Below are positions 9,677-33,989 of a DNA stretch of 64,000 nucleotides, in pieces. The DNA is from Candidatus Dojkabacteria bacterium. Lineage in GTDB: Bacteria > Patescibacteriota > Dojkabacteria > J137. The stretch is taken from positions 672 to 64,671 of the forward strand of contig JBGSZB010000029.1 in assembly GCA_041750555.1 (NCBI GenBank), read 5' to 3'. A model generated the notes under the pieces. It was not told the origin of the DNA. It searched no databases and saw only the letters and a program-made list of their open reading frames with translations. The first letter of the stretch is position 1. Each line of letters begins with the position of its first letter. The position numbers and the translations under genes are program-made.

Positions 9677-10483
9677 ATGAAAGATAATCAACCTATAATT
9701 TCTATTATAATTGTTACCTGGAATAACTCTCAGGATATTAAAAGTTGTTTAGAGAGTGTTTTTAACCAAACTTACAAAAATTTTAATGTTGTATTGGTTG
9801 ATAATGCTTCAACTGATAATACTGTAGAAATTGTTAGAAGTAATTTTCAATCAGTAATAATTTTACAGAATAAAGCAAATCAATATTTAACAAGGGGAAA
9901 TAATAAAGGTATTAAGTTTTCAATTGATACATTTGACCCTAAATATATTATGGTTTTAAATCCAGATACCCTTCTTAGTAAAAATTTGCTATCTGAATTG
10001 GTTAATGTTTTAGAAAAAAATCCAGAAGTTGGAGCTAGTGGTCCAAAAGTAATATTTGAGAACGATAGAGATAAGGGTTTAATTAATTCTGCAGGATTAA
10101 TTTTTGATGGATTTATGCAAGCATATGATAGAGGTTTCTTAGAGAAAGATAAGGGGCAATACGATAAACAAGAATATGTTTTTGGGGTTACTGGGGCATG
10201 CATTCTTTATAGAGCTGATATGCTTAAAGATATAGGGCTTTATTGGGAACAAGTAAGACTTCATTTAGATGAGGTTGAGTTATTTATTAGAGCTAAGAAA
10301 CGTAATTGGAAAGTTATATACAATCCTAAAGCGATTCTTCAACATAAATATATGCAATCTACAGATCAGAATAAAGCATACAAGATTAATAACGCAAAAA
10401 AGAATGTGTGGTTAAAAATTGCTCTAAAGCATTATTCATTAAAAAGTAAATTAGCAATGATTAAAAAGTATTTGTTTAGTTAA
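9677..10483 (+). CDS. Glycosyltransferase family 2
   Basis: ISIIIVTWNNSQDIKSCLESVFNQTYKNFNVVLVDNASTDNT is a GT-A N-terminal signature with a DNA(S) motif. A later DxD-like element is also present. Confidence 0.85.
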   Translation: MKDNQPIISIIIVTWNNSQDIKSCLESVFNQTYKNFNVVLVDNASTDNTVEIVRSNFQSVIILQNKANQYLTRGNNKGIKFSIDTFDPKYIMVLNPDTLLSKNLLSELVNVLEKNPEVGASGPKVIFENDRDKGLINSAGLIFDGFMQAYDRGFLEKDKGQYDKQEYVFGVTGACILYRADMLKDIGLYWEQVRLHLDEVELFIRAKKRNWKVIYNPKAILQHKYMQSTDQNKAYKINNAKKNVWLKIALKHYSLKSKLAMIKKYLFS

Positions 10484-10491
10484 GTTTTTAA

Positions 10492-10899
10492 TTAGCTTTC
10501 TGCATTCAGCCTTTGATCTACAAATCTCCTAATAGTGTGAGTTTTATCATGAACACTAATAAAAGTAAGGATCTTTTCAATCTGAGACCTTCTTTCTGAC
10601 TGATACTCTCCTCTAATATACCCTTTTATATATGACTTAGAAGTACTTTTTACTAACATATCTCTAATCTCTTGCACTGCTCTTGAAAATAATTTATTAA
10701 GTTGTAAGTTTCGAGATTCCCCTTTTGGAAATCTTTCTGATATTGATGCCAATGCAGAGTATAATTCAAAAAACTTCAAGATACGATTATCATCATCATA
10801 TGAACCTTCTATTAAGTCATTAAGTACTTTCTCTGCAACCTCCAGATCACTTCCGTTTCCCATGATATCGAGAGTTTCAAAATCAACCTCATGATCCAT
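10492..10899 (-). CDS. Hypothetical protein
   Basis: 135-aa ORF with no recognisable motif. It is acidic at the N-terminus and basic at the C-terminus. Confidence 0.35.
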   Translation of the reverse strand: MDHEVDFETLDIMGNGSDLEVAEKVLNDLIEGSYDDDNRILKFFELYSALASISERFPKGESRNLQLNKLFSRAVQEIRDMLVKSTSKSYIKGYIRGEYQSERRSQIEKILTFISVHDKTHTIRRFVDQRLNAES

Positions 10900-10967
10900 A
10901 CAGACTATCTTAAATTTAATACAGGATTATATTACTGATGATTAAATAATATAAAGGTCCTATAATA

Positions 10968-11468
10968 TTAAATAACAATATTACCAATTAAAAGAACCCC
11001 TAAAGAGATTAATAGACCTAGAAGAAACCCCACAATTACATCACTTAAATAATGATAGCCTAGTACTACTCTACTAAACCCTAGAATTATTGAATAAATT
11101 AATATTAAAAATACTATTAAAGGATTAGTAATATAAAATAAACTTAATATAAAAAAATAACCAACACTAGTAGCGTGAGTTGATGGAAATGAATGCGAAG
11201 TTAACTTTGAATAGTATGGTCTCTTTCTTTTAATAAACTTTTTAATACCATTCTCAATAATTAAAAACATTAAAACTATACCTACAATACTTAAGATAAA
11301 TAGTTCTAATCTTTTTTCAGTAAATAACAATTCAATTAATATTAAAGGAATAACTCCATATCCTACAGTTAATAAATCTAATAGTTTATGAGTTGACTTA
11401 TTAAGCCTAAAGACATTAAATACCTTTTCTGATAAACTCCTATCTAGTAGTACTAATTGTTTATACAT
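10968..11468 (-). CDS. PAP2-family (type 2 phosphatidic acid phosphatase) polyprenyl-pyrophosphate/phospho-sugar phosphatase
   Basis: All three PAP2 motifs are present in order: KRKRPYY (KX6RP), FPSTHA (PSGH-like) and SRVVLGYHYLSDV (SRX5HX3D). The protein is polytopic. Confidence 0.8.
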   Translation of the reverse strand: MYKQLVLLDRSLSEKVFNVFRLNKSTHKLLDLLTVGYGVIPLILIELLFTEKRLELFILSIVGIVLMFLIIENGIKKFIKRKRPYYSKLTSHSFPSTHATSVGYFFILSLFYITNPLIVFLILIYSIILGFSRVVLGYHYLSDVIVGFLLGLLISLGVLLIGNIVI

Positions 11469-12346
11469 TGAATAAATTTAAAGATTACTTAACATTAATA
11501 AGAATACATCAGATTCCTAAAAATTTCTTTATATTTCTACCATTAATATTTACTTCTAAATTTTTAATATTAGATGATTTAGTTAAATCTATACTCTACT
11601 TTCTACTTTTTACAATTATTACCTGGAGTGTATATATTATTAATGATATTAAAGATATAGAGGAAGATAAACTTCATCCAATTAAAAAGTATAGACCTTT
11701 AGCTTCTAATAAAATATCAAAAAATGAATTATTAATTATAAGATCATTCTTATCATTTTTATTCTTACTAATATCCTTTATTTGGTTTATTTTTATTGGA
11801 ATTGATTTAAACTTTATACTTGCACTTATTGTTCTATCAACTTACTTCTTAATTAATATTTTATATTCATATTTCTTTAAAAGAATACCTTATATTGAAT
11901 TAACTATAGTTCCAATAGGTTTTATATTAAGAAGTTTAGGTGGAGCCTATATTATTAATGAATATTTATCTATAGATCTATTTTTATTAATACTATTTTT
12001 AACCTCTTTTATTATTTTATCTAAAAGATTTAGAGAAAAATTTGTTACTAAATCTAGTAGAAGTGTTTTAAAAGTTTATACTAATAATTTTCTAAATTAT
12101 GGATTAAAAATTACTTTAAGCTTATTTTTAATTACCTATACCCTATTTACTTTATTCAACACAAGACATAGTAGTTTAATAATAATTACTAATCCATTTG
12201 TTTACTTAATTTCCATACGATACTTAAATTTAATTACTAATTCAAATGATAAGCAAGATGATCCTTTTAAAATATTTATTAAAGATAAATTTAATTTATT
12301 CTTAATAATACTCTGGGGAATAATTGTTGTTATTGAAACCATCTAA
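11468..12346 (+). CDS. UbiA-family polyprenyl-phosphate prenyltransferase, resembling decaprenyl-phosphate phosphoribosyltransferase
   Basis: The exact NDxxDxxxD motif is present (YIINDIKDIEEDKLHP, about 11641..11667), followed by KKYRPLASNKIS (compare the RPLASG of the UbiA family). The protein has about 8 TM helices. It contains no internal Met at all, so it must start at a non-ATG codon. The TTG at 11468 shares a base with the divergent PAP2 start codon. Confidence 0.7.
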   Translation: MNKFKDYLTLIRIHQIPKNFFIFLPLIFTSKFLILDDLVKSILYFLLFTIITWSVYIINDIKDIEEDKLHPIKKYRPLASNKISKNELLIIRSFLSFLFLLISFIWFIFIGIDLNFILALIVLSTYFLINILYSYFFKRIPYIELTIVPIGFILRSLGGAYIINEYLSIDLFLLILFLTSFIILSKRFREKFVTKSSRSVLKVYTNNFLNYGLKITLSLFLITYTLFTLFNTRHSSLIIITNPFVYLISIRYLNLITNSNDKQDDPFKIFIKDKFNLFLIILWGIIVVIETI

Positions 12347-13866
12347 TGCAGTATCTAAAGGAGAAAATAAAATTAAATAAAGCTTTATATCTAGTTTTAC
12401 TTGTTGTGATTTCTCTCTCTTTAATCACTATTCTATTAAATAATCCAAAAAGTTTTGGTGATGGGAGCGAATACACTTTATTGCTTGAAAGCTTATACAA
12501 TCACCAAAGCCCTGAATTGAGATTAGAAGATATTAATAGCACATACACAAATGCACTTAAATACAATTATGACGTTAATCTTTTTACACAAGAGAATGCA
12601 TATAGTGGGTACTTTACATCTGGTGATGGTTTAAACTACTCCTATCATTTCTGGGGATATTCCTTAGTATCCTTGCCAGTTAGGGGCTTTTTAGAAGTTT
12701 TTAATTTAAATATATTTAATACTTTTGCAATAACAAACTTATTACTCTTTAGTATTACTTCGTTTTTAATTCCTTTACTCATAAAGAGAAATAAAATAAT
12801 ATCTTTTTTAATACTTACTCTTAATACATCAATTCTTTACATTAACCTTAATCATCCTGAGTTCTTTACCTATTCATTAGTATTACTCTCTTCTCTTCTT
12901 TTTTTAAGAAATAAATACTTTTTAGCAATATTATTAAGTTCTCTAGCATCTCTTCAAAACACACCTGTAATATTTTTAACGTTATTAATATTAATTTATT
13001 CAACATATATTTATTTTAAAGAAACAGGGTTTAGATTAGTTTTAATAAAAAGACTATTACCCATATTTTTAATTTCCCTAATATCAGTCATTCCCTTTAT
13101 TTTTTACTATATAAACTTTCAAACTTTTAATTTAATACAAAAGGTTGGAGGGTCCGATTTAAATTTAATTTCTTTAAAAAGAGTAATTGAACTGTTTTTT
13201 GACCCTAACTTAGGATTATTTTTTTATGTTCCACTATCTGTAATTGGTATAGTTACTTCAATTTATTATTTCATTAAAAAAAGATCTTTAAAGATACTAA
13301 TCTTAATCTTAAGTGTTGTATTAATGAGTATTCTTTCTACTTCAACAACTAACTGGAATCATGGAATGATAACCTCTTCTAGATACGCTATATGGGCAAT
13401 ACTACCAATAGGTAACTTGCTTCTTATTGAGATAGTAAATCGGGAAAACATAATAATAAATTTGAAAGATTTTATTAAATTAGAGGGGTTGAAAACTCTA
13501 TTTAAGTTTAAATACTTAATAACTATTGCAATCTATTTATTACTAATCTATCAATTATTAATAGTAGTAATAGCAGGAGGTTTAATTTCAAACGGAAGAT
13601 TGGGGGGAAGCGGATTAACTCCTTTCTCTCAAGTAATATTAAATTACTTTCCATCTCTCTACTCTCCTACACAGCAAATATTTGAAGGTAGAGTTTTATG
13701 TAATGAAAAATTGTGTGATTATCCAATAATATATAAATACAATAATGATTGTAAGAAGATATTATTAAAGAATACTAGTGATAATGTTTCTAAAGTTATT
13801 AATGAATGTGGAGAAAATTTTAATATAGATCACTGTGATTCTACTTTTTGTTATTATAGTTATTAA
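12346..13866 (+). CDS. Polytopic membrane protein, putative GT-C-fold glycosyltransferase, with a Cys-rich extracytoplasmic C-terminus
   Basis: 506 aa and at least 10 TM helices. An acidic first loop is present (FGDGSEYTLLLESL...ELRLEDINS). The C-terminal 60 aa contain 7 Cys (CNEKLCDYP...DCKK...ECGENFNIDHCDSTFC). Its start overlaps the UbiA stop (taATG). Confidence 0.4.
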   Translation: MQYLKEKIKLNKALYLVLLVVISLSLITILLNNPKSFGDGSEYTLLLESLYNHQSPELRLEDINSTYTNALKYNYDVNLFTQENAYSGYFTSGDGLNYSYHFWGYSLVSLPVRGFLEVFNLNIFNTFAITNLLLFSITSFLIPLLIKRNKIISFLILTLNTSILYINLNHPEFFTYSLVLLSSLLFLRNKYFLAILLSSLASLQNTPVIFLTLLILIYSTYIYFKETGFRLVLIKRLLPIFLISLISVIPFIFYYINFQTFNLIQKVGGSDLNLISLKRVIELFFDPNLGLFFYVPLSVIGIVTSIYYFIKKRSLKILILILSVVLMSILSTSTTNWNHGMITSSRYAIWAILPIGNLLLIEIVNRENIIINLKDFIKLEGLKTLFKFKYLITIAIYLLLIYQLLIVVIAGGLISNGRLGGSGLTPFSQVILNYFPSLYSPTQQIFEGRVLCNEKLCDYPIIYKYNNDCKKILLKNTSDNVSKVINECGENFNIDHCDSTFCYYSY

Positions 13867-13869
13867 GAT

Positions 13870-14847
13870 ATGGAGAAATTTAAAAAAACTGCAATTATAA
13901 TTGTAAGCTATAAAACACCTTGGTATTTAAACCAATGTTTAAAAAGTATATATAAACATACTTCTAACTTTCATATATATATTTCTCAAAATACTAAAGA
14001 CTTAGCTTCCATTAATGTTATTAACAAATATATTAGTAAATATCCAAATACCCTAACTTTAAAAATTAATGATAAAAATTTAGGATATGTTGGAGGAGTT
14101 AATAGTCTGTACACAGAAACTATACAACATGAGAGAATATGCTTTCTAAATAGTGATTGTATAGTAACCCCTAATTGGTTAACTGAAATGAATAAAGTTT
14201 TAGATTTAGATAATAATGTTGTACAAGTAGCTCCTGACTCTAATCAATTTTATACTGAAAAACTTTTTTGGAGATTAATTAGATGGCAAATTATGAAAAG
14301 ATTTCCAATATTAGGGGCTAGAATATATAAATATATGTTGTTTTTTAATCCACCTAGACATAGTGGTAATAAAGACTTTAGTGATACAGGCGATAAATTT
14401 TATCTATTCTGTGGTGGATTTTGTAATTTAATTAGAAGTAAATACTTTAAAGATTTAGGTTATTTATTAGATCCTAACATTGTTCATGGATATGGAGACG
14501 ATTTTGACCTAAGTTACTATTTAAGGCAATTTGGTAAGATTGGGGCTACATATCATAGTTATGTATTCCATTTTGTTAATGCTTCTTTAAACAAATTAAA
14601 TTCTAGAGAACAATTAAAACAAAAAGTGAGTCAATTAAATAGACTGTATATTGTTTCTAAATGGGAAAACAGATTAAAAGATGATATGAATAAAGTAAAT
14701 CAAGATGAACTACTCTCTCTCTCTAACTCTCAAGAAATTGATATTATTCTTAAATACTTTGGAATAATTAACATTGATCCTAAATTTAGAGAATATATTA
14801 AATCTATTCCTGCAAAAGAATACGAGAATCAATTATTAAATAATTAG
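13870..14847 (+). CDS. Glycosyltransferase family 2
   Basis: AIIIVSYKTPWYLNQCLKSI is a GT-A N-terminal motif. Acidic residues follow at the expected DxD position (NSDC). Confidence 0.6.
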   Translation: MEKFKKTAIIIVSYKTPWYLNQCLKSIYKHTSNFHIYISQNTKDLASINVINKYISKYPNTLTLKINDKNLGYVGGVNSLYTETIQHERICFLNSDCIVTPNWLTEMNKVLDLDNNVVQVAPDSNQFYTEKLFWRLIRWQIMKRFPILGARIYKYMLFFNPPRHSGNKDFSDTGDKFYLFCGGFCNLIRSKYFKDLGYLLDPNIVHGYGDDFDLSYYLRQFGKIGATYHSYVFHFVNASLNKLNSREQLKQKVSQLNRLYIVSKWENRLKDDMNKVNQDELLSLSNSQEIDIILKYFGIINIDPKFREYIKSIPAKEYENQLLNN

Positions 14848-14925
14848 CTTAAAGTTAATTTAAGTGTATATAATATCCCTAAGAAATAATATTTCTTAAA
14901 CGTCTTTTATTTATTATTTAATTAA

Positions 14926-16002
14926 ATGAAAATAATAATATTTGCTGGAGGTACAGGTAAAAGATTTTGGCCTGCTAGTAGAAAGAGTTCTCCTAAACAG
15001 TTTTTACCAATAATAAATAATAGTCCATTAATTAAAATTAAATACGAGTATTTAAGATTAGGCTTTAAACCCGAAGATATATTTGTAAGTACTGGAATTC
15101 AATACAAAAAAGAAGTAACTACAATTTTAAATGAATTACCAGAACAAAACTTTATATTTGAACCAGAGATGAGAGATACCGGTCCTGCAGTAACCCTTGC
15201 AATATCATATGTTTCAAAAAGATTTCCAACGGAAGTTATCTCAACTCAATGGTCAGATCATTTAATAAAAAAACCTAAAGTATTTATTAAAGCATTGAGG
15301 GAATCTGAAAAATATATTTTAAATAATAGGGCTAAATATATTTTAATTGGAGTTCCTGCTAGATTCCCCTCACCTCATAGGGGATATATTAAATTTGGTA
15401 ATGAAATAGAAAAGATTAATAAAGATATTAGTTTAAAAAAGTTTATAGCTTTTAAAGAAAAACCAGATTTAGAGTTAGCCAAAGTTTATATTAAATCTAA
15501 AAACTACGCTTGGAATCCAGGTTACTGGAGTATGAAGGGAGTTGATTATTTAAATATTGTAAAGAAGAGCTCTCCTGAAATTTACAATGTTTGCCAGGAA
15601 ATAGTTAATAGTGAATTTAATATTAATAGTTTAAATAAGTTTAAAACTTTAGAAAAGATAGCCGCTGATTATATCTTTGCAGAAAACTTAAAAGTTAAGG
15701 ATACCCTAGTTACTTTAAGTGATATGGGTTGGAGTGATGTTGGGGAATGGATAGCTTTTAAAGAAGCATTTGAAAGTAGTAATAATTCAAATGTAAGTAT
15801 TGGTAATAGCTTTGACTATGAATCACATGATACTCTAATTTATAATCAAGAAAATGAAAAGTTAATAGCCACAATTGGATTAAAAGGCTTTGTGGTTGTT
15901 AATACTAAAGATGTACTAGCAATATTTCACAAAGATGATAATACTAAAATTAAAGAGTTTTTAAATAAATTAGAGGAGAATGATTTAAGTAAATATCTAT
16001 AA
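14926..16002 (+). CDS. manC: Mannose-1-phosphate guanylyltransferase (GDP-mannose pyrophosphorylase), nucleotidyltransferase domain only
   Basis: MKIIIFAGGTGKRFWPASRKSSPKQFLPI matches the ManC/CpsB N-terminal signature (GGxGxRLWPxSR..PKQF). No phosphomannose isomerase domain is present. Confidence 0.8.
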   Translation: MKIIIFAGGTGKRFWPASRKSSPKQFLPIINNSPLIKIKYEYLRLGFKPEDIFVSTGIQYKKEVTTILNELPEQNFIFEPEMRDTGPAVTLAISYVSKRFPTEVISTQWSDHLIKKPKVFIKALRESEKYILNNRAKYILIGVPARFPSPHRGYIKFGNEIEKINKDISLKKFIAFKEKPDLELAKVYIKSKNYAWNPGYWSMKGVDYLNIVKKSSPEIYNVCQEIVNSEFNINSLNKFKTLEKIAADYIFAENLKVKDTLVTLSDMGWSDVGEWIAFKEAFESSNNSNVSIGNSFDYESHDTLIYNQENEKLIATIGLKGFVVVNTKDVLAIFHKDDNTKIKEFLNKLEENDLSKYL

Positions 16003-16060
16003 TTCAATAGTTACTTAATGTATTTATTTACTCATATAATTACTTTACTGCTATACTGAA

Positions 16061-16516
16061 TTGATAAAAGTGAGAAATAAATATATGGTCAGAAAAACAT
16101 TAAATACACAGGTTTTTAGATTTTTAGTTGTAGGATTTAGTGCTTTTTTAATAGATTATGGAACTCTTTTTATTTTAATTGAAGTTTTTAAATTTAATTT
16201 AGAACTATTTAACTTTATATTAGTTGCTAATATCATCTCTACTGTTATAGCTGTACTATTTGGTTTCTATTTTCAAAAGAAATGGACATTTAAAACTATT
16301 AACTCTGAAAAGGCTAAGATGGAGTTTGTGTTGTTTATTGCCCTACAAGTATTTAACATCTTATTTTACAATGCTTTATTATTTAATATTTTTAGATACA
16401 ACTTATCTCTTGATGCATTAATTGCTAAACCTTTAGTTGTTGTATTTCAAACCATAACAAGTTATATGGCTATGAAGTTTATTATCTTTAAAACAGATAC
16501 AAAAGTAAGTAATTAA
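16061..16516 (+). CDS. GtrA-family small membrane protein, a putative polyprenyl-phosphate-sugar flippase component
   Basis: 151 aa with four TM helices. FRFLVVGFSAFLIDYGTLFILIEVF is typical of the GtrA family. Confidence 0.75.
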   Translation: MIKVRNKYMVRKTLNTQVFRFLVVGFSAFLIDYGTLFILIEVFKFNLELFNFILVANIISTVIAVLFGFYFQKKWTFKTINSEKAKMEFVLFIALQVFNILFYNALLFNIFRYNLSLDALIAKPLVVVFQTITSYMAMKFIIFKTDTKVSN

Positions 16517-16560
16517 TTACTATTTAATATATAAATTAAAGCTTATATTTTTTTATAACT

Positions 16561-17304
16561 ATGAAAAATACCCTTTTATCAATTGTAATACCTGCATACA
16601 ATGAGGAAAAAACTTTAGAAGAATTAGTTAATAGAGTTCTTAAAGTTAAATTCCCTGAAGATATAGATACTGAAATAATTATTGTTAATGATGGTTCTCA
16701 AGATAATACAGGTAAGATTGCTAAATCATTAGATAAGAAACATAAAAATATTAAAGCTTTTGATAATGCAGAAAATTCTGGTAAATCACAAACTGTTAGG
16801 AATGGATTATTAAAAACAAAAGGAGATATTGTAGTTATTCAAGATGCTGATTTTGAATATGATCCTAATGAATTAGTAGATTTATTAAATTTAATGAGGG
16901 AAAACAATTTGGAAGTTGTATATGGGAATAGGTTTGGGAAAAAGAATAAGGTTATATATTGGCAAAACTATATTGGAAATAAATTTTTATCTCTCGTTTC
17001 AAATGTTTTTACATACCCAAGAATTGGAGTATGGTTACCTGATATGGAAGTTTGCTATAAAATGATTAAAGGAGATATTGCTAGAAAGCTAGGCGAAGAA
17101 ATAGTATCTACTACCATGTTTGGTTTAGAACCTGAAATTACCGCTAAACTATCCCAATATACAATAGAAAAAAGAAGGTTAAAGTTTGGAGTTGTACCAA
17201 TTAGTTATCTACCTCGTAGTATAAAAGAAGGCAAAAAGATGAAAGCTTTTAATGATGGGTTTAAAGCTATAGTTGAGATTATTAAATTTAATTTACTAAA
17301 CTAG
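16561..17304 (+). CDS. GT2 polyprenyl-phosphate sugar synthase (Dpm1/GtrB-like)
   Basis: LSIVIPAYNEEKTLEELVNRV... IIIVNDGSQDNT ... VIQDADFEYDP is the DPM1/GtrB-type motif set (DGS, DAD). Confidence 0.8.
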   Translation: MKNTLLSIVIPAYNEEKTLEELVNRVLKVKFPEDIDTEIIIVNDGSQDNTGKIAKSLDKKHKNIKAFDNAENSGKSQTVRNGLLKTKGDIVVIQDADFEYDPNELVDLLNLMRENNLEVVYGNRFGKKNKVIYWQNYIGNKFLSLVSNVFTYPRIGVWLPDMEVCYKMIKGDIARKLGEEIVSTTMFGLEPEITAKLSQYTIEKRRLKFGVVPISYLPRSIKEGKKMKAFNDGFKAIVEIIKFNLLN

Positions 17305-17307
17305 TAT

Positions 17308-18252: not shown

Positions 18253-18315
18253 TTTTATTGTATAAATATTATTATTTGGGTATTATAGCAACATATTTAA
18301 TGTTAATAAATTTAT

Positions 18316-18942: not shown

Positions 18943-18945
18943 TTA

Positions 18946-25674: not shown

Positions 25675-25690
25675 ATATTAAAAAAAATAC

Positions 25691-26395
25691 ATGGCTAGAC
25701 CAACATTTAACTTAAGAAACTTTGACTTTTTAGATTTAGGTAGTAAGAAAGGTGGTTCAATACTATACTGCCAAGAAAGATTTAGTAAGATATATAACAA
25801 AAATTTAAAAGGTATTGGAGTTGATATTAATCCTGTAAGTGTAGATTATGCTATAGGGAATGGTTTTCCATCATTTGTACATGATATAACCAAGCTTAAG
25901 ATTAACAACTATAAGTTTAAATTTATCTCCTCTCTTGATTTCATGGAACATTTACCAAATAAAGAGTATGTTCCAAAAGTTGTAGAAAATATTAGTAATT
26001 TAGCATCTGACTTTTTATTCATTAGACACCCCTCTTTTGAGGATCTAGACTATTTAAAAGGATTAGGTTTAAAAATTGATTGGAACGATTGGAGTGGACA
26101 TAGTGCAATGATGAGAGTTGATGAATTTACAGAGATATTTAATAATTTAGGGCTTTCTAAATACTGTATAGTTTTTAGAAACCCAATACTTTCAAGTGAT
26201 AGTCCAAGAATTATTCCAATAGATGCTCCAGTAGATAGCCATGAATATGATAAATCTATGGGGAATAAGAAGTCCTTTAAGTTTAATAAACCAATCTATG
26301 CTCAAATTGATATGTTTGTTGCATTAAAAGATATAAAGAAAGATAAATGGAATAGAATTGTTGAAGAAAGTATTAAAATTCAGAAGTTTCTTTAA
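25691..26395 (+). CDS. Putative SAM-dependent methyltransferase
   Basis: FLDLGSKKGGS (degenerate motif I) and GIGVDINPVSVDYA (the post-I acidic motif). This call is weak. Confidence 0.4.
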   Translation: MARPTFNLRNFDFLDLGSKKGGSILYCQERFSKIYNKNLKGIGVDINPVSVDYAIGNGFPSFVHDITKLKINNYKFKFISSLDFMEHLPNKEYVPKVVENISNLASDFLFIRHPSFEDLDYLKGLGLKIDWNDWSGHSAMMRVDEFTEIFNNLGLSKYCIVFRNPILSSDSPRIIPIDAPVDSHEYDKSMGNKKSFKFNKPIYAQIDMFVALKDIKKDKWNRIVEESIKIQKFL

Positions 26396-28522
26396 TTACC
26401 TTTTAACTAGTTTTACAGCTTTATACAGTACTGGATATTGCATTAACTTGGCCTTTAGTTTAGCCTTTAAGAAGTTTTTAGAGTAAGGATTAAATAGATC
26501 ATTTAAAAATCTTTTAGTAAAAAACAACCCTATACCCTTCATTGAATTACCTTTATTTCCTAATTCAAGTAAATATTTTTCAATATCTTCCCCATAATTA
26601 CTACTCAATTGTAAATTACTTGAAAATTTAAAAGCTTTATCTACTCTTTTTTTATCATTATCATTTAAAAGCTCATCAAAAGCCTTCTTTAATGAATTTA
26701 AATCTGAAGCATTAAATGTATATGCGGTTGTTTCATCTACAAAATCACTTAATCCACCTACCGTTGTTGAAATTAATGGTACCTTTAATAGCATTGCTTC
26801 AAATGCTGATCTACCAAAACCTTCTGATCTAGATGCATTTATCATGGCTTTACTTGATTTAATAATTTCAAATGGATTATCAATAAATCCTAAGAAATGT
26901 ATATATTCTTCTAACTTATATTTTTTAATTAATTCAAGAATTTTAGTATAGTAATCACTATTAACATCATATTCTCCAATTAAGAGTAAATGATATTTAT
27001 CACTATCTTTTGTTTTATTTAATGTATTAATTAATTCTATAGCATCAATTTGACCTTTATTCTCTTCAATTGAACCAAGGACTACTAATCTATTACTATT
27101 AAACACTTCATCATCTTTTGTTTTAAAGTAATTAACTATCTTTTTAATATCAACTAATTGATTTCTTTCATGAAATTGTTTTTCTAATACGTGTAAGTTT
27201 GGATATCTTTGTATTAAGACTTTTGTTCTCTCCTTAATAATTTTTTTCTTTTCTTCACCTATTACATCAAAAGATCTTCCTTCCCAATGATGTATATACA
27301 TATTTGTAGATACAATTATTCTATAGCCCTTATTCAATGCTCTCATTGATAAATCAACTTCTTCTCCATAACCTTTTCCAAAGTTATCTTCATCAAAGTA
27401 ACCTATATCATTCAAAAGAGATCTTTTAATATATGTACAATATCCATGAGTTGCATGAGTCTCTATATATTTGTAAGGGGAGAATAATTCTAGTGCTTTA
27501 TTAACAATTTCAGGGTTATTTTCAAACTCTTTATTAAATTGATCTGGAACAGAGTAATAACTTGCACTATTAGATAAACTTGTAGACATACAAATATTAT
27601 CATCTTGATAAACATTAGTTCTTAATTTATCTATCCAGTTAGAAGTAACAACTGTATCTGAGTTTAATAGTATTACATCATTAGCACTTGATAACTTCAT
27701 TCCTCTATTACAATTTTTAACAAATCCTAAGTTTTCTTCGTTTTCTAAATATACAAACAAATCATTATGCTTTTTTATCCAAGTTTCTACTCTCTCTCTT
27801 AATTCTAAATCTGGTCCTTTATCAAATATTACATATACTTTATCTAAGTGAGGTGATTTATGCTTTAAAACGCTCTCTAAGCACTCTAGAATACTATCAT
27901 CTTTGTAAAAGGGTATAACTACATCAACCTTTCTTTTCTCTTTAATAGGCTTTAAATTTTGATTTTCTACAACAATCCTATTTGTAATAACTGTGGAATT
28001 TTCATTAACTATCTCTTTGGTATAAATATCTTTAAGATAATTTGAAATATATATTACTCTTGAACTACTACTGTTAATGTAATTAGCAATATCATTTTGT
28101 GGAACTATTGGTGTATAAGTTGGGTTATCAATTATTGATTCTCTAATATGCCATATATGTGGCACATTTAAGAAAGTTGAAACCATTGCTCCTACATTTG
28201 TAACTGCAGTATTTGTATATATTAAATCTACCTTTTCACCCTTTAAAAAATTATATATGTTAATAGCTTGAGTTAATATATTCTGAAACTTTATATTGTT
28301 GTTAACATTCTTTTCCCATGATAAGTTTACCCAAAGATCAAAATAGAAATGAAAACATTTAACTCCAAGTTTTGTTGATTCTTCTAAAAGGGATCCACTA
28401 TCTTCTCTACTAATTAAAAGAATTTCGTGGTTTTTTGATTTTAAATATTTAATTAATTCAAATAGTGACTCTTCAGCTCCACCTGTTTTTCTTGCTCTTG
28501 GAGTTATTATTGCTATTTTCAT
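26396..28522 (-). CDS. Three-module glycosyltransferase (GT4 N-lobe, GT2, GT4)
   Basis: 708 aa. The N-terminus MKIAIITPRARKTGGAEESLFELIKYLKSKNHEILLIS is a GT-B N-lobe. The middle VDVVIPFYKDDSILECLESVLKH...DVILLNSD is a GT2/GT-A module. The C-terminus RSEGFGRSAFEAMLLKVPLISTTVGGLSDFV is the GT4 EX7E motif. Confidence 0.8.
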   Translation of the reverse strand: MKIAIITPRARKTGGAEESLFELIKYLKSKNHEILLISREDSGSLLEESTKLGVKCFHFYFDLWVNLSWEKNVNNNIKFQNILTQAINIYNFLKGEKVDLIYTNTAVTNVGAMVSTFLNVPHIWHIRESIIDNPTYTPIVPQNDIANYINSSSSRVIYISNYLKDIYTKEIVNENSTVITNRIVVENQNLKPIKEKRKVDVVIPFYKDDSILECLESVLKHKSPHLDKVYVIFDKGPDLELRERVETWIKKHNDLFVYLENEENLGFVKNCNRGMKLSSANDVILLNSDTVVTSNWIDKLRTNVYQDDNICMSTSLSNSASYYSVPDQFNKEFENNPEIVNKALELFSPYKYIETHATHGYCTYIKRSLLNDIGYFDEDNFGKGYGEEVDLSMRALNKGYRIIVSTNMYIHHWEGRSFDVIGEEKKKIIKERTKVLIQRYPNLHVLEKQFHERNQLVDIKKIVNYFKTKDDEVFNSNRLVVLGSIEENKGQIDAIELINTLNKTKDSDKYHLLLIGEYDVNSDYYTKILELIKKYKLEEYIHFLGFIDNPFEIIKSSKAMINASRSEGFGRSAFEAMLLKVPLISTTVGGLSDFVDETTAYTFNASDLNSLKKAFDELLNDNDKKRVDKAFKFSSNLQLSSNYGEDIEKYLLELGNKGNSMKGIGLFFTKRFLNDLFNPYSKNFLKAKLKAKLMQYPVLYKAVKLVKR

Positions 28523-28523
28523 T

Positions 28524-29714
28524 TTAATTTTTTGAAATATATTTTTGAATATCCCATGATTTATCTAGGGTTAATAACCCTCTGTCTTTGTTATCAACTT
28601 CACTCCTTTCTATATGAAACACTGTAGATCTTTTATCCATAAAAAGAACTTTATCATTATTTTCATCAAGAACTGCAACATCTACATAATAGTCACCTTC
28701 ACTTAGGTTTAAGTTTTTTAAAGTTAGATAAACTGAATCACATTCTACTAAGTTTGAAATGTTTGAAAAATTTGAAGTAGTTTCATAAATTAATAAATCA
28801 TCGTCTCTAGTTAAACTAAATTTTAAATTATAATTTTGTACTAATTTCTTATTCTGAATAGCTGCTCTTATGCTTAAATCATAATCCTTAATAATCTCTG
28901 CTCTTACTTTTGAAACTACAATATCATTGTCCACCCTGTCATATTTTTCTTCTTCTGCTTTTTGTAGCTTTTCAATTTCAAGTAAGGATTGACGATACTG
29001 ATCAATACCTGTTCTTGTATCTCCATCAAATATGACTTCTCCTTGGTTTAACCATACAACCCTATTACAGTATTTTTGAACTGAACCTAAACTGTGACTA
29101 ACATAAATAACTGTTTTACCCTGTTCAATTAGTTTATTTATAACTCCAATAGATTTAGATCTAAATGCACCATCACCTACTCCAAGTATTTCATCTAAAA
29201 TATATATATCAGCATCAGTTTGAATAGCTATTGAGAAAGCTAATCTAACCTTCATTCCACTTGAATAGTTTTTAACAGGTGTATGTATAAAGTCTCCTAA
29301 TTCTGAAAACTCTACAATATCGTTATATCTTTTTTTAATCTCCTTAGTTGTTAAACCTAAAATTGCTCCATTAAGAAATATATTTTCTCTACCAGATAGT
29401 TCTGGGTTGAATCCAACTCCTAATTCTAGAAAAGGAACCATTCTTCCATTAACCGTAACCTCTCCTCCTTTATCTGGACTATATATCCCTGCAATTACTT
29501 TTAAAAGTGTTGATTTACCACTACCATTTCTACCTATTATTCCAATAAACTCACCTTTTTTAATATCTAAATGAATATTTTTTAATGCATGAAAAGGTTT
29601 AGATTTACCTTGATTAAAAAGTGAAACAACTAGAGATCTTAATGTATCCTTTTTATTATCTGCTATAAAAAAGGATTTATTTAAATTTTTTATACTTACT
29701 GCTATATCATTCAT
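28524..29714 (-). CDS. ABC transporter ATP-binding protein, Wzt/TagH-like polysaccharide exporter with a C-terminal extension
   Basis: Walker A GRNGSGKSTLLKVIAG, the signature YSSGMKVRLAF and Walker B IYILDE. A C-terminal region of about 150 aa follows the NBD, as in Wzt glycan-binding domains. Confidence 0.85.
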   Translation of the reverse strand: MNDIAVSIKNLNKSFFIADNKKDTLRSLVVSLFNQGKSKPFHALKNIHLDIKKGEFIGIIGRNGSGKSTLLKVIAGIYSPDKGGEVTVNGRMVPFLELGVGFNPELSGRENIFLNGAILGLTTKEIKKRYNDIVEFSELGDFIHTPVKNYSSGMKVRLAFSIAIQTDADIYILDEILGVGDGAFRSKSIGVINKLIEQGKTVIYVSHSLGSVQKYCNRVVWLNQGEVIFDGDTRTGIDQYRQSLLEIEKLQKAEEEKYDRVDNDIVVSKVRAEIIKDYDLSIRAAIQNKKLVQNYNLKFSLTRDDDLLIYETTSNFSNISNLVECDSVYLTLKNLNLSEGDYYVDVAVLDENNDKVLFMDKRSTVFHIERSEVDNKDRGLLTLDKSWDIQKYISKN

Positions 29715-29717
29715 AGT

Positions 29718-30500
29718 TTAAAAATACTCAGCTACTCTTTTTATTCTTTTGTTAAAGAATGACCAACCTAAAATAAAGATAATTAATGATCCTAAAAAGA
29801 ATATTATTCCCTTTTCTACATCAATTGTTCCATATACTCCTAACGCTGCTCTTACCTGATTAATTAATATTCCTACAGGGTTATATTTTAATATATATGA
29901 CATAACGCCTCCACTCCCTAAAGGGAAACTTGAAAGTGTAAAAAATATTGGTGTTAACCAATAAAGTAAAAAGAAACCTAGATCTACAATGTTTTTTAAA
30001 TCTCTAAATCTAATTGAAACTATACTAAAAAAGAAAGATATTCCAAGACATGCAATAAATGCACTTATTGTTAAGAAGATAAAGTACGCAAGACCTCCTA
30101 ATGTAACTTGAATATTATTAGCTAATATAAAGATTACTATTAACAACATATTTATTACTAAATTGATAAGTGCATTAAATTGAGATGCAATAACAGCTAT
30201 TTGTCTTGGGAAATTAACTTTAAGAATAATTCCTGCCTTATCTAGTAAAGACATCATACCCAGGGTTACCATTTCAGTTATATATGTATAAAAGATTATT
30301 CCAGTTAGTAAATAAAGTGAGAAAAATTCAACATCGTCATTTTGTCTAATCCTACTCCATATTAGAAAAAGAACTATAAAAGTTGCATATGGCTTTATTA
30401 ATACCCATAAAACTCCTAGTACGGAGTTTTGATATCTCATCTTAAAGCTTGTTTTTATTAGTTCTTTTAAAAGTGTAAAAGAGTTACGTGTTTTAATCAT
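29718..30500 (-). CDS. ABC-2 type polysaccharide export permease (Wzm/TagG-like)
   Basis: 260 aa and 6 TM helices. It lies immediately upstream of the Wzt-like ATPase, with a 3-nt gap. Confidence 0.8.
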   Translation of the reverse strand: MIKTRNSFTLLKELIKTSFKMRYQNSVLGVLWVLIKPYATFIVLFLIWSRIRQNDDVEFFSLYLLTGIIFYTYITEMVTLGMMSLLDKAGIILKVNFPRQIAVIASQFNALINLVINMLLIVIFILANNIQVTLGGLAYFIFLTISAFIACLGISFFFSIVSIRFRDLKNIVDLGFFLLYWLTPIFFTLSSFPLGSGGVMSYILKYNPVGILINQVRAALGVYGTIDVEKGIIFFLGSLIIFILGWSFFNKRIKRVAEYF

Positions 30501-30547
30501 ATTACTTATCTTACAGGTTATTATACAATAGTAGATTTAATTAACAA

Positions 30548-31447
30548 CTATACCCTGAAAATTTTTAATCTCGAAATTATTGAATTTGAACGTATTAATT
30601 CTTTAGGTAAAGACATCCTTCCTTTTGAATTAAGAATCTTTATAGCTTCATAGTATTCTTTTGGTGATTTAAAATTTTTAATAAACCTTGATATTTCTTT
30701 GGTATTCTTAAAAGAATCAATTTCGCTTTTTTTCTCTGATATTTTGTTTTTTTTCATAAAATTTTCGAATTCATCTTTTACCTCATCTTTATCCAGCATT
30801 AATTTACCCTTAAAATCTCTCCCTATATTCAAACCAGCAAGCAGAATTTTAAAATCACTGTCGTTTTCTGATTCTCTTGACCAATAGCTTTCAAGTATAG
30901 AATTTACATCATCATGTTTTACACCATAGGTAAAGCCCTTTCGAAAGATATCTTCAAAATACTGTTCAAAATCATGAATTCCACAAACTACATCAGTAAT
31001 ATAATTATAATAACCATTCTTGTGCATTGATTTAATCATATGAGTTTCTGGTCTATTCTCATCAACTGATATATATTTCAGAGCTTCCGGTATGAAGCTT
31101 GTTCTATAAAATTTAATACCCCCAACCCTAACTCCACCAAAATACTTATCCAACATTGATGACTGTATTGTAAAAACTTTTTCGTTCTGTGTATTAGCAA
31201 TTTTTAAAAATTTAGTTAATACACCTTTAGCAATTAAAACATCTGCATCTATAACCATTGTCCATTTCTTATTAGCTTTTATACCTGCCTCCATTGAAGA
31301 ATATAGTGCCTTACTAAAAGGAAATTCGTTAATGACAAATATATTATTTTCATTACGCTCCTCTTCTAAAAGGGATATGCATAAATCTAATGTTCTCTCT
31401 TTTACCGATCTGATAACTATTAATACTTCCCTATCAAGATTCTTCAT
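30548..31447 (-). CDS. Hypothetical protein, possibly a GT-A-fold nucleotide-sugar transferase
   Basis: N-terminal VLIVIRSVKERTLDLC and a DxD-like WTMVIDADVLI. The assignment is weak. Confidence 0.3.
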   Translation of the reverse strand: MKNLDREVLIVIRSVKERTLDLCISLLEEERNENNIFVINEFPFSKALYSSMEAGIKANKKWTMVIDADVLIAKGVLTKFLKIANTQNEKVFTIQSSMLDKYFGGVRVGGIKFYRTSFIPEALKYISVDENRPETHMIKSMHKNGYYNYITDVVCGIHDFEQYFEDIFRKGFTYGVKHDDVNSILESYWSRESENDSDFKILLAGLNIGRDFKGKLMLDKDEVKDEFENFMKKNKISEKKSEIDSFKNTKEISRFIKNFKSPKEYYEAIKILNSKGRMSLPKELIRSNSIISRLKIFRV

Positions 31448-32304
31448 TTAATTGATCTTCTAAAATATACTTTTGTATCACTAATCTCTTTTCTTGGTAT
31501 TACCTTAGAAGTATTAATATCTACTACTTCATAATGAAGGTCATTTATTAAATCCCAAAGTTTCTCTGGGCTAAAGTAGTTAACGTGTTCCCAAGTATTT
31601 ATGCTTTTATCAAAAGGTCTCCCTTCCCTTATGCCATTAAGACTCCTTTCAAGTCTTTCTTGGGAATAATTAGGAACTATTATTAGTCCAATAAACTCAT
31701 CTGATAAGTACTTATCTATACTCGAAAGGATCTCTCTTGGATTAACAATATGTTCAAAAACTGCATTAGAAAAAAATATATTGTATTTTTTATCTGTGCT
31801 AAGCTCTTCAAAAGATTTAACACTATGGATACCTGTTTTATTCATATAATCTCTTTTTCTGTCATCATACTCAACAGTTGATACTTCGACTCCTGGAGCT
31901 GAAATATTCAAAGCAAAATCTCCCCATCCAGAACCAAACTCCAAAACCTCAAGTTTATCAGAGTTCTCTATTTTATCTTTAAATAGGTAACTAAATATCT
32001 CGACTTTCAAGATTGAGTAGAACAGTCTTTTTGAATTTTTAAATATCTTAGTCTTACTCTCATTAGCATCTATAATCTTTCCATATATTACAGACATTCC
32101 TTCCTCGTCAAGAACTTCAGAGGTGAATACAAACTTACATTTTCTACACTTTACTATATTTATTTCGTTAAGGTTAATAATATCACTTCTATAAATTGTT
32201 TCCCTATCTAAAGAAGGGTTAATATCAACAAAGTCTTTGTAATTCACAGATATTAGACAATCAAACTTGTTAGATTTACATAGAGGACAATTTCTTTTAA
32301 TCAA
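31444..32304 (-). CDS. SAM-dependent methyltransferase with an N-terminal Cys4 zinc ribbon
   Basis: CPLCKSNKF...CRKCKFVF is the zinc ribbon. VLEFGSGWGDFA is motif I. Both flanks overlap their neighbours by 4 nt. Confidence 0.7.
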   Translation of the reverse strand: MIKRNCPLCKSNKFDCLISVNYKDFVDINPSLDRETIYRSDIINLNEINIVKCRKCKFVFTSEVLDEEGMSVIYGKIIDANESKTKIFKNSKRLFYSILKVEIFSYLFKDKIENSDKLEVLEFGSGWGDFALNISAPGVEVSTVEYDDRKRDYMNKTGIHSVKSFEELSTDKKYNIFFSNAVFEHIVNPREILSSIDKYLSDEFIGLIIVPNYSQERLERSLNGIREGRPFDKSINTWEHVNYFSPEKLWDLINDLHYEVVDINTSKVIPRKEISDTKVYFRRSIK

Positions 32305-33989
32305 TTATTAACAAGCTCTTGAAATAAATTATTAAGTATATATATCTGTATCTTACCTTTGAAGTCATTAAATAACTCCCTCTTCCAAGATCCAAGAGGT
32401 ATACTAAAACCTTTTTTAGCCCTATTAATGATCTTATTTGGCAATATATCCTTGTATGCATACTTTAATAGGCCCTTCAGTTCTCCGTTCAAATATTTTA
32501 TTTCTTCTGGAACTGTAAACATATATTCAATAAGCTTTCTAGATTGTAGCGGAACTCTTACTTCTAGGGCTACAGACATTGAAACCCTGTCAACCTTTGT
32601 CAAAATATCACTTGGCAAATAAGTATTAAAATCCATATACTGAAGTCTTGTACGCAAAGGCAAATCTTTTTTATAATATTTTCTTATATACCAGTAGTCA
32701 TCATAATCCCTAGGAATGTTCCAGAGTTTTCTATACTCAAATTTTTCTTCTTTAGTTAAACCTGATATATGTTTAATATACAGAGTAAAGATATTATTAT
32801 CACTTAAAGTTGGATTAAATTTATCAATAAATATATTTTTCAACTTCTTACTTTCGTTCCAAATAGAGTTATACCATACATATCCCCCAAATATTTCATC
32901 ACCTCCGTCACCAGTCAATACAACAGTTGAATCTTTTCTTGCAAATTCTGAAACATAGTAGGTTGGGAATGCTGAAGTATCTGAGAAAGGTTCATCATAC
33001 CAACTTTTTAACTTTGAAAACAATGAGCTGATGTCTTTACTCTCCAAATATTTAACAGAGTGCTTAGTTTTAAACTTCTCTGAAACTAAAAGTGCATACT
33101 CAGTTTCATCTTTCTCATTATCCTTATATCCTATAGAATAAGTATTAAGTTGTTTCGTAAATTTTGAAGATGTAGAGACTACTATACTTGAATCCATACC
33201 TCCACTTAAGAAAAACCCAACAGGAACATCGCTGACTAGGTGGGAGCTGACTGACTCATCAATGATATTACGAATCTTATCTGCACATTCACTAAGATTT
33301 GAGTTGTTAAATTTAACACTCAAACTCCAATATTTATTTATTGAAAGAGATCCACTTCTTAAATTAAATCTAAGATAACTACCCGGTTCAAGCTTATATA
33401 CATTCTTGTAAGGAGTTTTAGGTTCGGGTATATAGTTATATGTTAAAAAATCATATAAAGCTGTTTTATCAATATCTAAAGAATTGTTTTTATGAAAATA
33501 TTGTAAAGACTTCAGTTCTGACCCCCAGGCAAGAGTATCTTTTATAAATGAATAGTATAGTGGTTTTATTCCAACCCTATCTCTTATGAGATATATATCT
33601 TTACTCTTAACATCATAAATAGATATTGAATACATCCCTTCAATTTTGGAAAGTAATTTTTCTATACCCCATTTCTTAAAACCATAGAGTACTACTTCAG
33701 AGTCTGACTCACTTTTAAACTTAAACTCATAGAGCTCCTCTCTTAACTCCTTATAATTATAAATTTCACCGTTAACACTTATCACTACTGTGTTGTTTTC
33801 ATCAAACATTGGCTGTTTACCGTTATCAGAAATATCTAGTATGCTTAATCTTCTATGTCCCATATATATATCCTCATCAGACCAATCACTCCATTGATCA
33901 GGCCCTCTATGTGACAATGTGTCTAGTGCATTCCTCGAGTGCTGGATATTTTTTTTATTAAAATTTGTATGACCAAATATTCCACACAT
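32301..33989 (-). CDS. Asparagine synthase (glutamine-hydrolysing) family amidotransferase (AsnB/WbpS-like)
   Basis: MCGIFG is the N-terminal nucleophile Cys2 of class II glutamine amidotransferases. The synthetase-domain PP-loop SGGMDSS is present. Confidence 0.9.
   Translation of the reverse strand: MCGIFGHTNFNKKNIQHSRNALDTLSHRGPDQWSDWSDEDIYMGHRRLSILDISDNGKQPMFDENNTVVISVNGEIYNYKELREELYEFKFKSESDSEVVLYGFKKWGIEKLLSKIEGMYSISIYDVKSKDIYLIRDRVGIKPLYYSFIKDTLAWGSELKSLQYFHKNNSLDIDKTALYDFLTYNYIPEPKTPYKNVYKLEPGSYLRFNLRSGSLSINKYWSLSVKFNNSNLSECADKIRNIIDESVSSHLVSDVPVGFFLSGGMDSSIVVSTSSKFTKQLNTYSIGYKDNEKDETEYALLVSEKFKTKHSVKYLESKDISSLFSKLKSWYDEPFSDTSAFPTYYVSEFARKDSTVVLTGDGGDEIFGGYVWYNSIWNESKKLKNIFIDKFNPTLSDNNIFTLYIKHISGLTKEEKFEYRKLWNIPRDYDDYWYIRKYYKKDLPLRTRLQYMDFNTYLPSDILTKVDRVSMSVALEVRVPLQSRKLIEYMFTVPEEIKYLNGELKGLLKYAYKDILPNKIINRAKKGFSIPLGSWKRELFNDFKGKIQIYILNNLFQELVNN

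Follow-up and report, generated by a model that had tools for sequence, protein, structure and literature searches.

The three-component pentofuranose system of Citrobacter youngae O1/O2 consists of ORF15 (PPPRS-PRP), ORF14 (MATE) and ORF12 (Kelly et al. 2024, PMC11127046), and ORF12 is the enzyme that founded the glycosyltransferase (GT) family GT136 (PMC11127046). The mycobacterial decaprenyl-phosphoribose/arabinose pathway comprises the decaprenyl-phosphate phosphoribosyltransferase (DPPRS) Rv3806c, the PAP2 phosphatase Rv3807c, the GtrA-like Rv3789, the DprE1/E2 pair and the GT-C transferases Aft/Emb, while O-antigen glucosylation relies on GtrA/GtrB/Gtr* systems. Gram-positive equivalents of the Gtr systems are CsbB/GtcA/YfhO, acting on teichoic acids, and GacI-L, acting on the streptococcal group A carbohydrate. 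Here we describe a 24-kb glycan island (9677-33989) within a stretch of 64,000 nucleotides from a Candidatus Dojkabacteria bacterium (contig JBGSZB010000029.1), hereafter the window, which is a combination of known kinds of system: a mycobacterial-style GT136 system in a genome of the candidate-phyla-radiation (CPR) type, together with two unnamed GT-C-type families.

We consider it likely that the island encodes one surface glycopolymer, built in the cytoplasm and exported by Wzm/Wzt, and three independent glycosylation modules acting outside the cell, each with a GT-C-type transferase. In each module a polyprenyl-phosphate-sugar donor would be made inside and used outside through that transferase, and the target of decoration is probably the exported polymer. 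The family and fold assignments, the conservation of catalytic residues in the first transferase (protein A) and the conserved gene partnerships are directly supported by the data presented below.

Among the open reading frames (ORFs) of the window with at least 100 amino acids, domain scans covered nearly all, and families were sought with Pfam and NCBIfam profiles and by PDB sequence search. The elements listed in an earlier sequence-only reading of the window were all present at the coordinates it gave: profile searches recovered GtrA, ManC, an N-acetylhexosamine (HexNAc)-type dehydrogenase, a flippase-like protein, a GT4/GT2/GT4 enzyme, Wzm/Wzt, AsnB and methyltransferases, as well as four GT2s (9677-10483, 13870-14847, 16561-17304, 17308-18252), two of which resemble polyprenyl-phosphate-sugar synthases, their best solved relatives being DPMS, GtrB and ArnC. 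Left out of that gene list were PAP2 (10968-11468, - strand), UbiA (11468-12346) and a TOD1/MUCI70 glycosyltransferase (24214-25674). The three large polytopic proteins A, B and C had no Pfam match and no significant NCBIfam match (C has two weak, sub-threshold NCBIfam matches, E 0.002 and 0.008), and PDB sequence searches with all three, as single sequences and as family profiles, returned nothing meaningful. The earlier view that they are too divergent to name does not hold for A, which is assignable to GT136; B and C match no named family. They had also been described as lacking soluble domains and carrying acidic first loops, whereas A and C have small extracytoplasmic C-terminal domains and the acidic loop of B, which is conserved, follows its fifth hydrophobic segment; when structure models were compared, A and C were found to have a GT-C fold.

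The genes of the first module, and the small gene beside them, are as follows.

10492-10899, - strand: soluble protein of 135 residues beside PAP2, with no assigned family (no match in Pfam or NCBIfam; 77% identical ortholog in the related contig L004)
10968-11468, - strand: PAP2 membrane phosphatase (Pfam PAP2, 1.9e-16)
11468-12346, + strand: UbiA-family polyprenyl-phosphate 5-phosphoribosyltransferase (PPPRS/DPPRS-like), TTG start (NCBIfam, PDB, motifs)
12346-13866, + strand: protein A, GT-C glycosyltransferase assigned to family GT136

The best NCBIfam model for the UbiA protein is decaprenyl-phosphate phosphoribosyltransferase (1.2e-47; 162.8 bits against an equivalog cutoff of 234), and its only PDB relatives are the mycobacterial DPPRS structures 8j8j/8j8k (E 4e-18). 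The NDxxDxxxD and RxxE loops, shown to be important in ORF15 and DPPRS (PMC11127046), are both intact at residues 59-67 and 187-190. All acid-phosphatase motifs are kept in PAP2, namely KxxxxxxRP (76-84), PSTH (95-98) and RxxxxxHxxxD (133-143), and its gene, divergent from that of UbiA, is 90% conserved in L004, the closest contig found. The start codons of PAP2 (- strand) and UbiA (+ strand, TTG) share base 11468, leaving no intergenic promoter region, and the identical overlap occurs in L004 (8612-9112 / 9112-9993), where the gene caller overlooked UbiA. The first base of the protein A gene is the final base of the UbiA gene.

The A family has few members but a broad distribution: a word-indexed homolog search returned 25 clusters, and homologs of A were located at 46 loci in contigs representing one genome per species, with hosts including Paenibacillus, Bacteroidota, Acidobacteriota, Citrobacter, Burkholderia, Armatimonas, Gastranaerophilales and one archaeal metagenome-assembled genome. 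A DPPRS-like UbiA ORF lies at most 6 kb from the A homolog in 30 of the 46 loci, and also in L002-L004, and this proximity spans Paenibacillus, Bacteroidota, Citrobacter, Burkholderia and Gastranaerophilales. Service of A by the GtrB/Dpm1-like GT2s was rejected, the conserved partner across phyla being the UbiA enzyme. The succession from ManC through a Dpm1-like enzyme and GtrA to a GT-C transferase, which had been proposed for the island as a whole, thus holds for protein C, whose cassette recurs in Saccharibacteria, but not for A, which is partnered by PAP2 and UbiA.

The A-family profile retrieves the loci of C. youngae, C. pasteurii and a Citrobacter sp., and A matches the 651-residue C. 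pasteurii protein with a phmmer E-value of 1.9e-29. Residues D31, E34, Y35, H106, H174, E176, R349 and Y350 of the latter protein match the published numbering of C. youngae ORF12 exactly. Eight residues were mutated in ORF12 and the replacement of five left no or trace activity (PMC11127046); activity needs D31, E34, H106 and R349, with Y35 and Y350 partly required (PMC11127046). All eight are conserved in A, as D39, E42, Y43, H101, H170, E172, R346 and Y347, and in 24 family members D39, E42, Y43, H101, R346 and Y347 vary little or not at all. In its structure model A adopts a GT-C fold, and a small extracytoplasmic domain follows the first transmembrane (TM) helix. The protein ends at residue 506 with a Cys-rich (six-Cys) beta region of ~55 residues, and it lacks the C-terminal domain of ~150 residues of the Citrobacter, Burkholderia and Paenibacillus proteins; since the C-terminal carbohydrate-binding module of ORF12 is reported to be dispensable for catalysis (PMC11127046), its absence from A does not bear on GT136 membership. 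On the strength of these alignments A belongs to CAZy GT136, and it is proposed to be a pentofuranosyl (ribofuranosyl) transferase, with PAP2 proposed as the polyprenyl-P-ribose-5-P 5'-phosphatase, the role of Rv3807c.

Judged by these sequence features, module 1 is a three-component pentofuranose system, in which UbiA would move ribose-5-phosphate from phosphoribosyl pyrophosphate (PRPP) onto polyprenyl phosphate, PAP2 would then take off the 5'-phosphate and, once flipped, the lipid-linked pentofuranose would be passed to an acceptor by protein A. There is no epimerase in the island, and ribofuranose is therefore the sugar predicted. The GtrA protein (16061) and the LPG_synthase_TM-like protein (18946) are both candidate flippases for this module, and the flippase-type neighbour varies among homologous loci, being DedA/VTT in L002 and EamA-like in L047. 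The order in the latter, a Paenibacillus locus, is UbiA, A, a divergent PAP2 (DUF212), the EamA-like gene and an NAD epimerase. In L002 (Bacteroidota) the GT136 homolog overlaps the upstream DedA/VTT gene (7577-8011), a possible flippase, and a 553-residue polytopic protein without Pfam match (11193-12854) follows a HAD-UbiA pair.

Compared with Citrobacter, the module has in common a UbiA-type PPPRS with NDxxDxxxD, a dedicated phosphatase and a GT136 transferase in which all eight mutated positions are identical, with the system genes adjacent and lying within a glycan cluster of the ABC-transporter type. However, the phosphatase is a separate PAP2 membrane protein rather than a fused HAD domain, a MATE flippase is missing from the island, a short six-Cys beta domain takes the place of the carbohydrate-binding module of ORF12, and the host is a Gram-positive-like CPR bacterium and not an enterobacterium with lipopolysaccharide. 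As in the mycobacterial pathway, UbiA and PAP2 are encoded by two neighbouring genes, the cluster includes a member of the GtrA family, and a GT-C enzyme is predicted to use a lipid-linked pentofuranose. Unlike mycobacteria, the island has no DprE1/E2 pair, hence ribose and not arabinose is predicted, and its transferase belongs to GT136 and not to Emb/Aft; the lone transferase also suggests side-chain addition, not arabinan polymerisation. The arabinan (decaprenyl-phosphate-arabinose, DPA) pathway was rejected as DprE1/E2 were not found in the island.

Module 2 comprises the following genes.

14926-16002, + strand: ManC-like mannose-1-phosphate guanylyltransferase (Pfam NTP_transferase and ManC_GMP_beta-helix)
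16061-16516, + strand: GtrA/DPMS_TM protein with four TM helices (Pfam GtrA_DPMS_TM, 3.8e-16)
16561-17304, + strand: TM-less Dpm1/Ppm1-like GT2 (PDB DPMS 5mlz, 3e-16; GtrB 5ekp, 5e-16)
21396-22850, - strand: protein C, apparently CPR-restricted glycosyltransferase of GT-C fold

The ManC-like protein scores under the cutoff of TIGR01479 (4.6e-59) because its PMI domain is absent. The GT2 at 16561 lacks TM helices and is closest, among solved structures, to Pyrococcus furiosus DPMS (5mlz) and GtrB (5ekp). Pfam places GtrA and the DPMS membrane domain in one family, and the GtrA/GT2 pair may be a split polyprenyl-phosphate-mannose synthase, besides or instead of having a flippase role. In two Saccharibacteria contigs (L052, L053) a C homolog lies among housekeeping genes, along with a methyltransferase and orthologs of GT2 16561 (1e-111) and GtrA 16061 (1e-34), and in another contig (L054) the C homolog again adjoins an ortholog of GT2 16561, with E-values from 1e-100 to 1e-111 for these GT2s across the three; the GtrA and GT2 gene pair is kept in L004, L052 and L053. 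ManC would provide GDP-mannose, the TM-less GT2 and GtrA would make and flip a polyprenyl-phosphate-hexose, and protein C would transfer its sugar outside the cell; the upstream ManC suggests mannose as the sugar of this module. The structure model of C has a GT-C fold for which ArnT, ALG12 and AglB reach scores close to that of Pmt4, and it therefore gives no indication of the acceptor. No Pfam match to PMT, PMT_2 or MIR was found in C or in nine homologs, and the likeness to PMT is at the level of the fold only; unlike GT39 PMT and GT83 ArnT enzymes, C has no sequence match to PMT/PMT_2 or ArnT models and no MIR domains.

Module 3 lies between the GtrA/GT2 pair and protein C.

17308-18252, - strand: GtrB/ArnC/AglJ-type GT2 with two C-terminal TM helices (234-262, 273-291)
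18316-18942, + strand: S-adenosylmethionine (SAM)-dependent methyltransferase tied to the module of protein B (Pfam Methyltransf_11, 1.6e-15)
18946-19815, + strand: LPG_synthase_TM-like ('flippase-like') protein with seven TM helices (weak HpnL match, 8e-4)
19805-21403, + strand: protein B, of a polytopic family without description

The GT2 at 17308 aligns along its full length with the AglJ, PgfS, ArnC and Dol-P-hexose transferase models, in each case below the cutoff. Among solved structures it is closest to DPMS, ArnC and GtrB, and its two C-terminal TM helices fit the GtrB/ArnC architecture. The gene at 18946 overlaps the start of the B gene by 11 bp. A word-indexed homolog search with B returned B alone, while a full HMMER scan of 1.84 billion representatives yielded 29 remote homologs; among 25 members of this family scanned there was no Pfam, NCBIfam or PDB match, and a scan of metagenome contigs with the closer members gave no relative. 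Two relatives could be placed on contigs. In the first (L055) the order is Wzm, Wzt, a multi-domain GT, a 684-residue polytopic protein, the B homolog, a GT2 and a methyltransferase, and in the second (L056) a 695-residue polytopic protein, the B homolog, an LPG_synthase_TM protein, a GT2 and a TOD1/GT2/GT4 enzyme. Both GT2s are orthologs of GT2 17308 (1e-91), the L055 methyltransferase beside its GT2 is an ortholog of 18316 (2e-41), and the L056 LPG_synthase_TM (PF03706) protein is related to 18946 (phmmer 1.8e-9). The polytopic proteins of 684-695 residues immediately upstream of both B homologs (L055 5940-7994, L056 290-2377) have no Pfam match and no counterpart in the window.

In this module the GtrB-type GT2 would make a second polyprenyl-phosphate-sugar, 18946 is the candidate flippase and protein B the putative transferase, with the methyltransferase 18316 presumably part of the module. 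Like GtrA/GtrB/Gtr* O-antigen glucosylation, the island combines a GT2 polyprenyl-phosphate-sugar synthase, a small flippase-type protein and a GT-C enzyme, predicted to act on an ABC-exported polymer. It differs in that B and C fall outside every Pfam and NCBIfam family, the YfhO, PMT_2 and Gtr-type models of those libraries among them, that one GT2 is TM-less, that an LPG_synthase_TM-like protein replaces GtrA in one module (there is a single GtrA copy), and that three modules lie in one locus.

The remaining genes of the island are listed below.

9677-10483, + strand: cytoplasmic GT2 of 268 residues, no TM helix (Pfam Glycos_transf_2, 1.4e-26)
13870-14847, + strand: cytoplasmic GT2 of 325 residues, no TM helix (Pfam Glyco_tranf_2_3, 1e-12; 81% identical ortholog right after A in L004)
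22937-24214, + strand: nucleotide-sugar (probably UDP-HexNAc) 6-dehydrogenase (TIGR03026, 3.7e-120, above cutoff)
24214-25674, + strand: TOD1/MUCI70-domain glycosyltransferase-like protein (Pfam PF04765, 2.9e-39)
25691-26395, + strand: methyltransferase-like protein (Pfam Methyltransf_23, 3.7e-5, under the gathering score)
26396-28522, - strand: GT4(N)-GT2-GT4(C) glycosyltransferase of 708 residues (Pfam Glyco_transf_4, Glycos_transf_2, Glycos_transf_1)
28524-29714, - strand: Wzt-type ABC ATPase with a C-terminal Wzt_C-like domain (ABC_tran, 5.4e-23)
29718-30500, - strand: Wzm-type ABC-2 permease (ABC2_membrane, 9.6e-9; at least five hydrophobic segments)
30548-31447, - strand: soluble protein of 299 residues (nothing in Pfam, NCBIfam or PDB)
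31444-32304, - strand: methyltransferase (Methyltransf_23, 1.3e-11)
32301-33989, - strand: AsnB-type glutamine amidotransferase (Asn_synthase, 5.4e-77; TIGR01536, 438.9 bits, above cutoff)

Wzm, Wzt, the 708-residue GT, the TOD1/MUCI70 protein, AsnB and two further methyltransferases are consistent with a polymer that depends on an ABC transporter. The C-terminal region of Wzt falls slightly short of the Wzt_C cutoff (29.1 bits against 30.4). For the dehydrogenase, UDP-ManNAc dehydrogenase (UDP-ManNAc/GlcNAc) and TviB models outscore the UDP-Glc dehydrogenase models, and the TOD1/MUCI70 gene is translationally coupled to it; domains homologous to TOD1/MUCI70 also occur inside multi-domain GTs of L054, L055 and L056. 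The polymer route would involve the multi-domain GT 26396 as polymerising enzyme, the TOD1/MUCI70 GT 24214, Leloir GT2s, the sugar dehydrogenase, the AsnB amidotransferase and the methyltransferases, of which 31444 is a candidate chain-end modifier; going by what is known of these families, the polymer may include a HexNAc uronic acid in amidated form and be methylated at its chain end. As had been proposed from sequence, no Wzx, Wzy, WecA, WbaP or ligase family was recognised among the scanned ORFs of the window, and a Wzx/Wzy pathway was rejected for the island in view of the absence of those genes from the scans. The accompanying suggestion that a polymer is exported by the ABC route and then decorated outside is consistent with the occurrence of a B homolog in one cluster with Wzm/Wzt.

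Several observations weigh against this account of the island. Neither a WecA/WbaP initiating transferase nor an LCP ligase or acceptor gene was recognised among the window ORFs, which leaves the polymer and its attachment undefined; the initiating transferase may be encoded elsewhere in the genome. No Citrobacter-type MATE flippase is present, a MatE Pfam match being absent from all island ORFs. The UbiA, GT2 and ManC scores are under the NCBIfam equivalog cutoffs, so that the substrates given for them are tentative. The L052 and L053 contexts are near-identical and do not count as independent evidence. Protein C lies 4 kb from GtrA/GT2, its gene overlaps convergently with that of B, and in L005 and L057 a short B-family protein (376-377 residues) directly follows the C homolog; the C/B partnership could therefore differ from the division into modules, and B and C may work together. 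Lastly, B and C align with a probability of 0.6% in hhalign, and the link of B to GT136 is one of sequence profiles, at probabilities of 75-93%.

These last points bear on whether B is a glycosyltransferase at all. If it were some other polytopic envelope protein, for example a transporter, a polymerase/ligase-like enzyme or a subunit accessory to C, only two GT-C modules would remain in the island, and the lack of any Pfam, NCBIfam or PDB match among its family members and the negligible alignment with C would be explained, while the short B-family proteins after C homologs and the B-C overlap would fit a C-B complex. We regard this as improbable, as B aligns with the GT136 family over 245-320 columns at 75% (E 2.5e-5), or, once the A profile is enlarged, at 80% local and 93% global; against this larger profile C, whose fold is confirmed, reaches 94-97% as a yardstick. 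In this alignment the conserved E312 of B is matched to E172 of A, and R499-Y500 of B to R346-Y347 of A; the family-invariant D179 lies in a loop for which the positive-inside rule (a crude topology estimate) predicts an outside location. Furthermore, the GtrB-type GT2 is a conserved neighbour of B in two independent contexts without a C homolog, and would otherwise be partnerless. Taken together, these observations make it quite probable that B is a GT-C-type transferase.

A second alternative is that the GT-C enzymes glycosylate proteins and not polysaccharide, in the manner of PMT/actinobacterial O-mannosylation or TfpW pilin arabinosylation. Two surface proteins encoded in the window would be candidate targets. 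The first (8797-9570, - strand; 257 residues) has a PTTPTTPTTP stalk and ends in LPDTA, a TM segment and a basic tail (a sortase-type signal); its Dojkabacteria ortholog in L058 (41% identical, weak Cohesin match) adjoins the C homolog together with the GT2 ortholog, and in L004 and L058 alike the gene again sits between the ribosomal cluster and the GT2/GT-C genes. The second (590-1324, + strand), N-terminally anchored with a Ser/Asn/Thr-rich linker, is weakly similar (4e-6) to a pilin-like protein (weak N_methyl) beside the C/B pair of Saccharibacteria L005 (12632-13291), and Pseudomonas pilin glycosylation is known to use PPPRS-type donors (PMC11127046). Nevertheless, the lack of PMT, PMT_2 and MIR matches in C and its homologs speaks against this possibility, the fold scores of C are uninformative on the acceptor, the modules sit inside a Wzm/Wzt polymer cluster both here and in L055, and the GT136 prototype acts on a polysaccharide, so that we judge protein targets unlikely. 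Protein O-mannosylation or assembly of a lipoglycan of the lipomannan/lipoarabinomannan (LM/LAM) type, as suggested in the sequence-only reading, is accordingly one possibility only, given that no PMT/MIR domain, DprE1/E2 pair or evidence on the acceptor was found. Least likely of the alternatives is an arabinofuranose or xylofuranose donor for module 1, as in mycobacterial DPA and Citrobacter O2, with the epimerase encoded elsewhere or by 10492-10899 or 30548-31447: ORF12 takes ribofuranose and xylofuranose donors, with epimerases diversifying the sugar (PMC11127046), the Paenibacillus locus has its NAD epimerase and the two soluble island proteins fit no known family, but no island ORF has an FAD-oxidase/SDR (DprE1/E2) or NAD-epimerase Pfam domain and the 135-residue protein is too small for such folds. 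Decoration of an ABC-exported polymer outside the cell by GT-C transferases is the best reading. Within it we infer which sugars are used, which proteins act as flippases, whether the acceptor is the polymer or a surface protein, and the chemistry of the polymer.

The window has a G+C content of ~28%, and its left part is occupied by a ribosomal cluster (S9, L13, L17, RpoA, S4, S11, S13; 4427-8231, - strand) recognised through synteny with a related contig, whereas housekeeping genes (HisRS, RecJ, RecA, trigger factor, TrpRS, Sua5-TsaE, RpoB) resume from 40 kb on. Adjacent genes of the island are separated by at most 86 bp, and there is therefore no room for hidden genes. The ribosomal proteins of L004 are 86-91% identical to those of the window, and the two contigs are collinear from the ribosomal cluster through GT2 16561, including the TTG-start UbiA missed by the gene caller and an ortholog of GT2 9677 at the matching position (78% identity). 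No housekeeping gene breaks this collinear block. A Candidatus Dojkabacteria contig (L058; RpoA 54% and S4 72% identical) mirrors the left border, with the ribosomal cluster, the cohesin-like surface protein, a 268-residue GT2 (46% identical to GT2 9677) and the GT-C gene, a C homolog.

Within the block shared with L004, protein A shares only 59% identity with its ortholog (10001-11500), whereas its neighbours are 76-91% identical (UbiA 76%, PAP2 90%, ManC 90%, GT2 16561 90%). This comparison suggests accelerated change or allele replacement of the transferase, a pattern that would be expected of a specificity-determining enzyme. Beyond GT2 16561 the gene content of L004 departs from that of the window and includes different polytopic proteins (450 and 461 residues) whose first loops are GT-C-like. 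Three polytopic proteins of L004 have no Pfam match (13656-15008, - strand; 18006-19199, - strand; 19332-20717, + strand); two of them have GT-C-like acidic first loops (ESDGVGYY; PDSIDQW), and none shows homology to A, B or C at E<1, which suggests that the GT-C repertoire varies between close relatives.

Other genes of the window lie outside the island. Directly downstream, 34064-37681 (- strand) encodes a secreted protein of 1205 residues in which an N-acetylmuramoyl-L-alanine amidase is joined to an S8 subtilase and FG-GAP repeats, and which could be a wall-degrading surface enzyme. At 41638-42915 (- strand) a LOG/SLOG (lysine-decarboxylase-like) domain is fused to a SAM methyltransferase domain in one protein of 425 residues, and at 57844-58971 (- strand) Sua5/YrdC and TsaE are fused in a single 375-residue protein.

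A literature search on GT-C systems in Patescibacteria found nothing relevant. A bolder proposal, which we offer tentatively and hold somewhat less probable than its opposite, is that B and C each found a new GT-C family, with C confined to the CPR, that the LPG_synthase_TM partner of B is a new flippase for polyprenyl-phosphate sugars, that these two modules together with GT136 ribofuranosylation produce a triply decorated glycan, and that fast-diverging transferases set surface specificity towards hosts and phages.

The one GT136 member characterised so far belongs to an enterobacterial O antigen, and the locus described here extends the PRPP-derived pentofuranose system to a CPR-type genome, in a mycobacterium-like form with a separate PAP2 and no MATE. 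B and C represent two unnamed GT-C-type families with defined gene partners, and the pairings of donor synthase and transferase are now testable. Next to nothing is known of the surface glycans of these bacteria, which are uncultured and often episymbiotic, and a locus that takes up 24 kb of a small genome and varies between close relatives provides a reasonable starting point on how such cells present themselves to hosts and phages.

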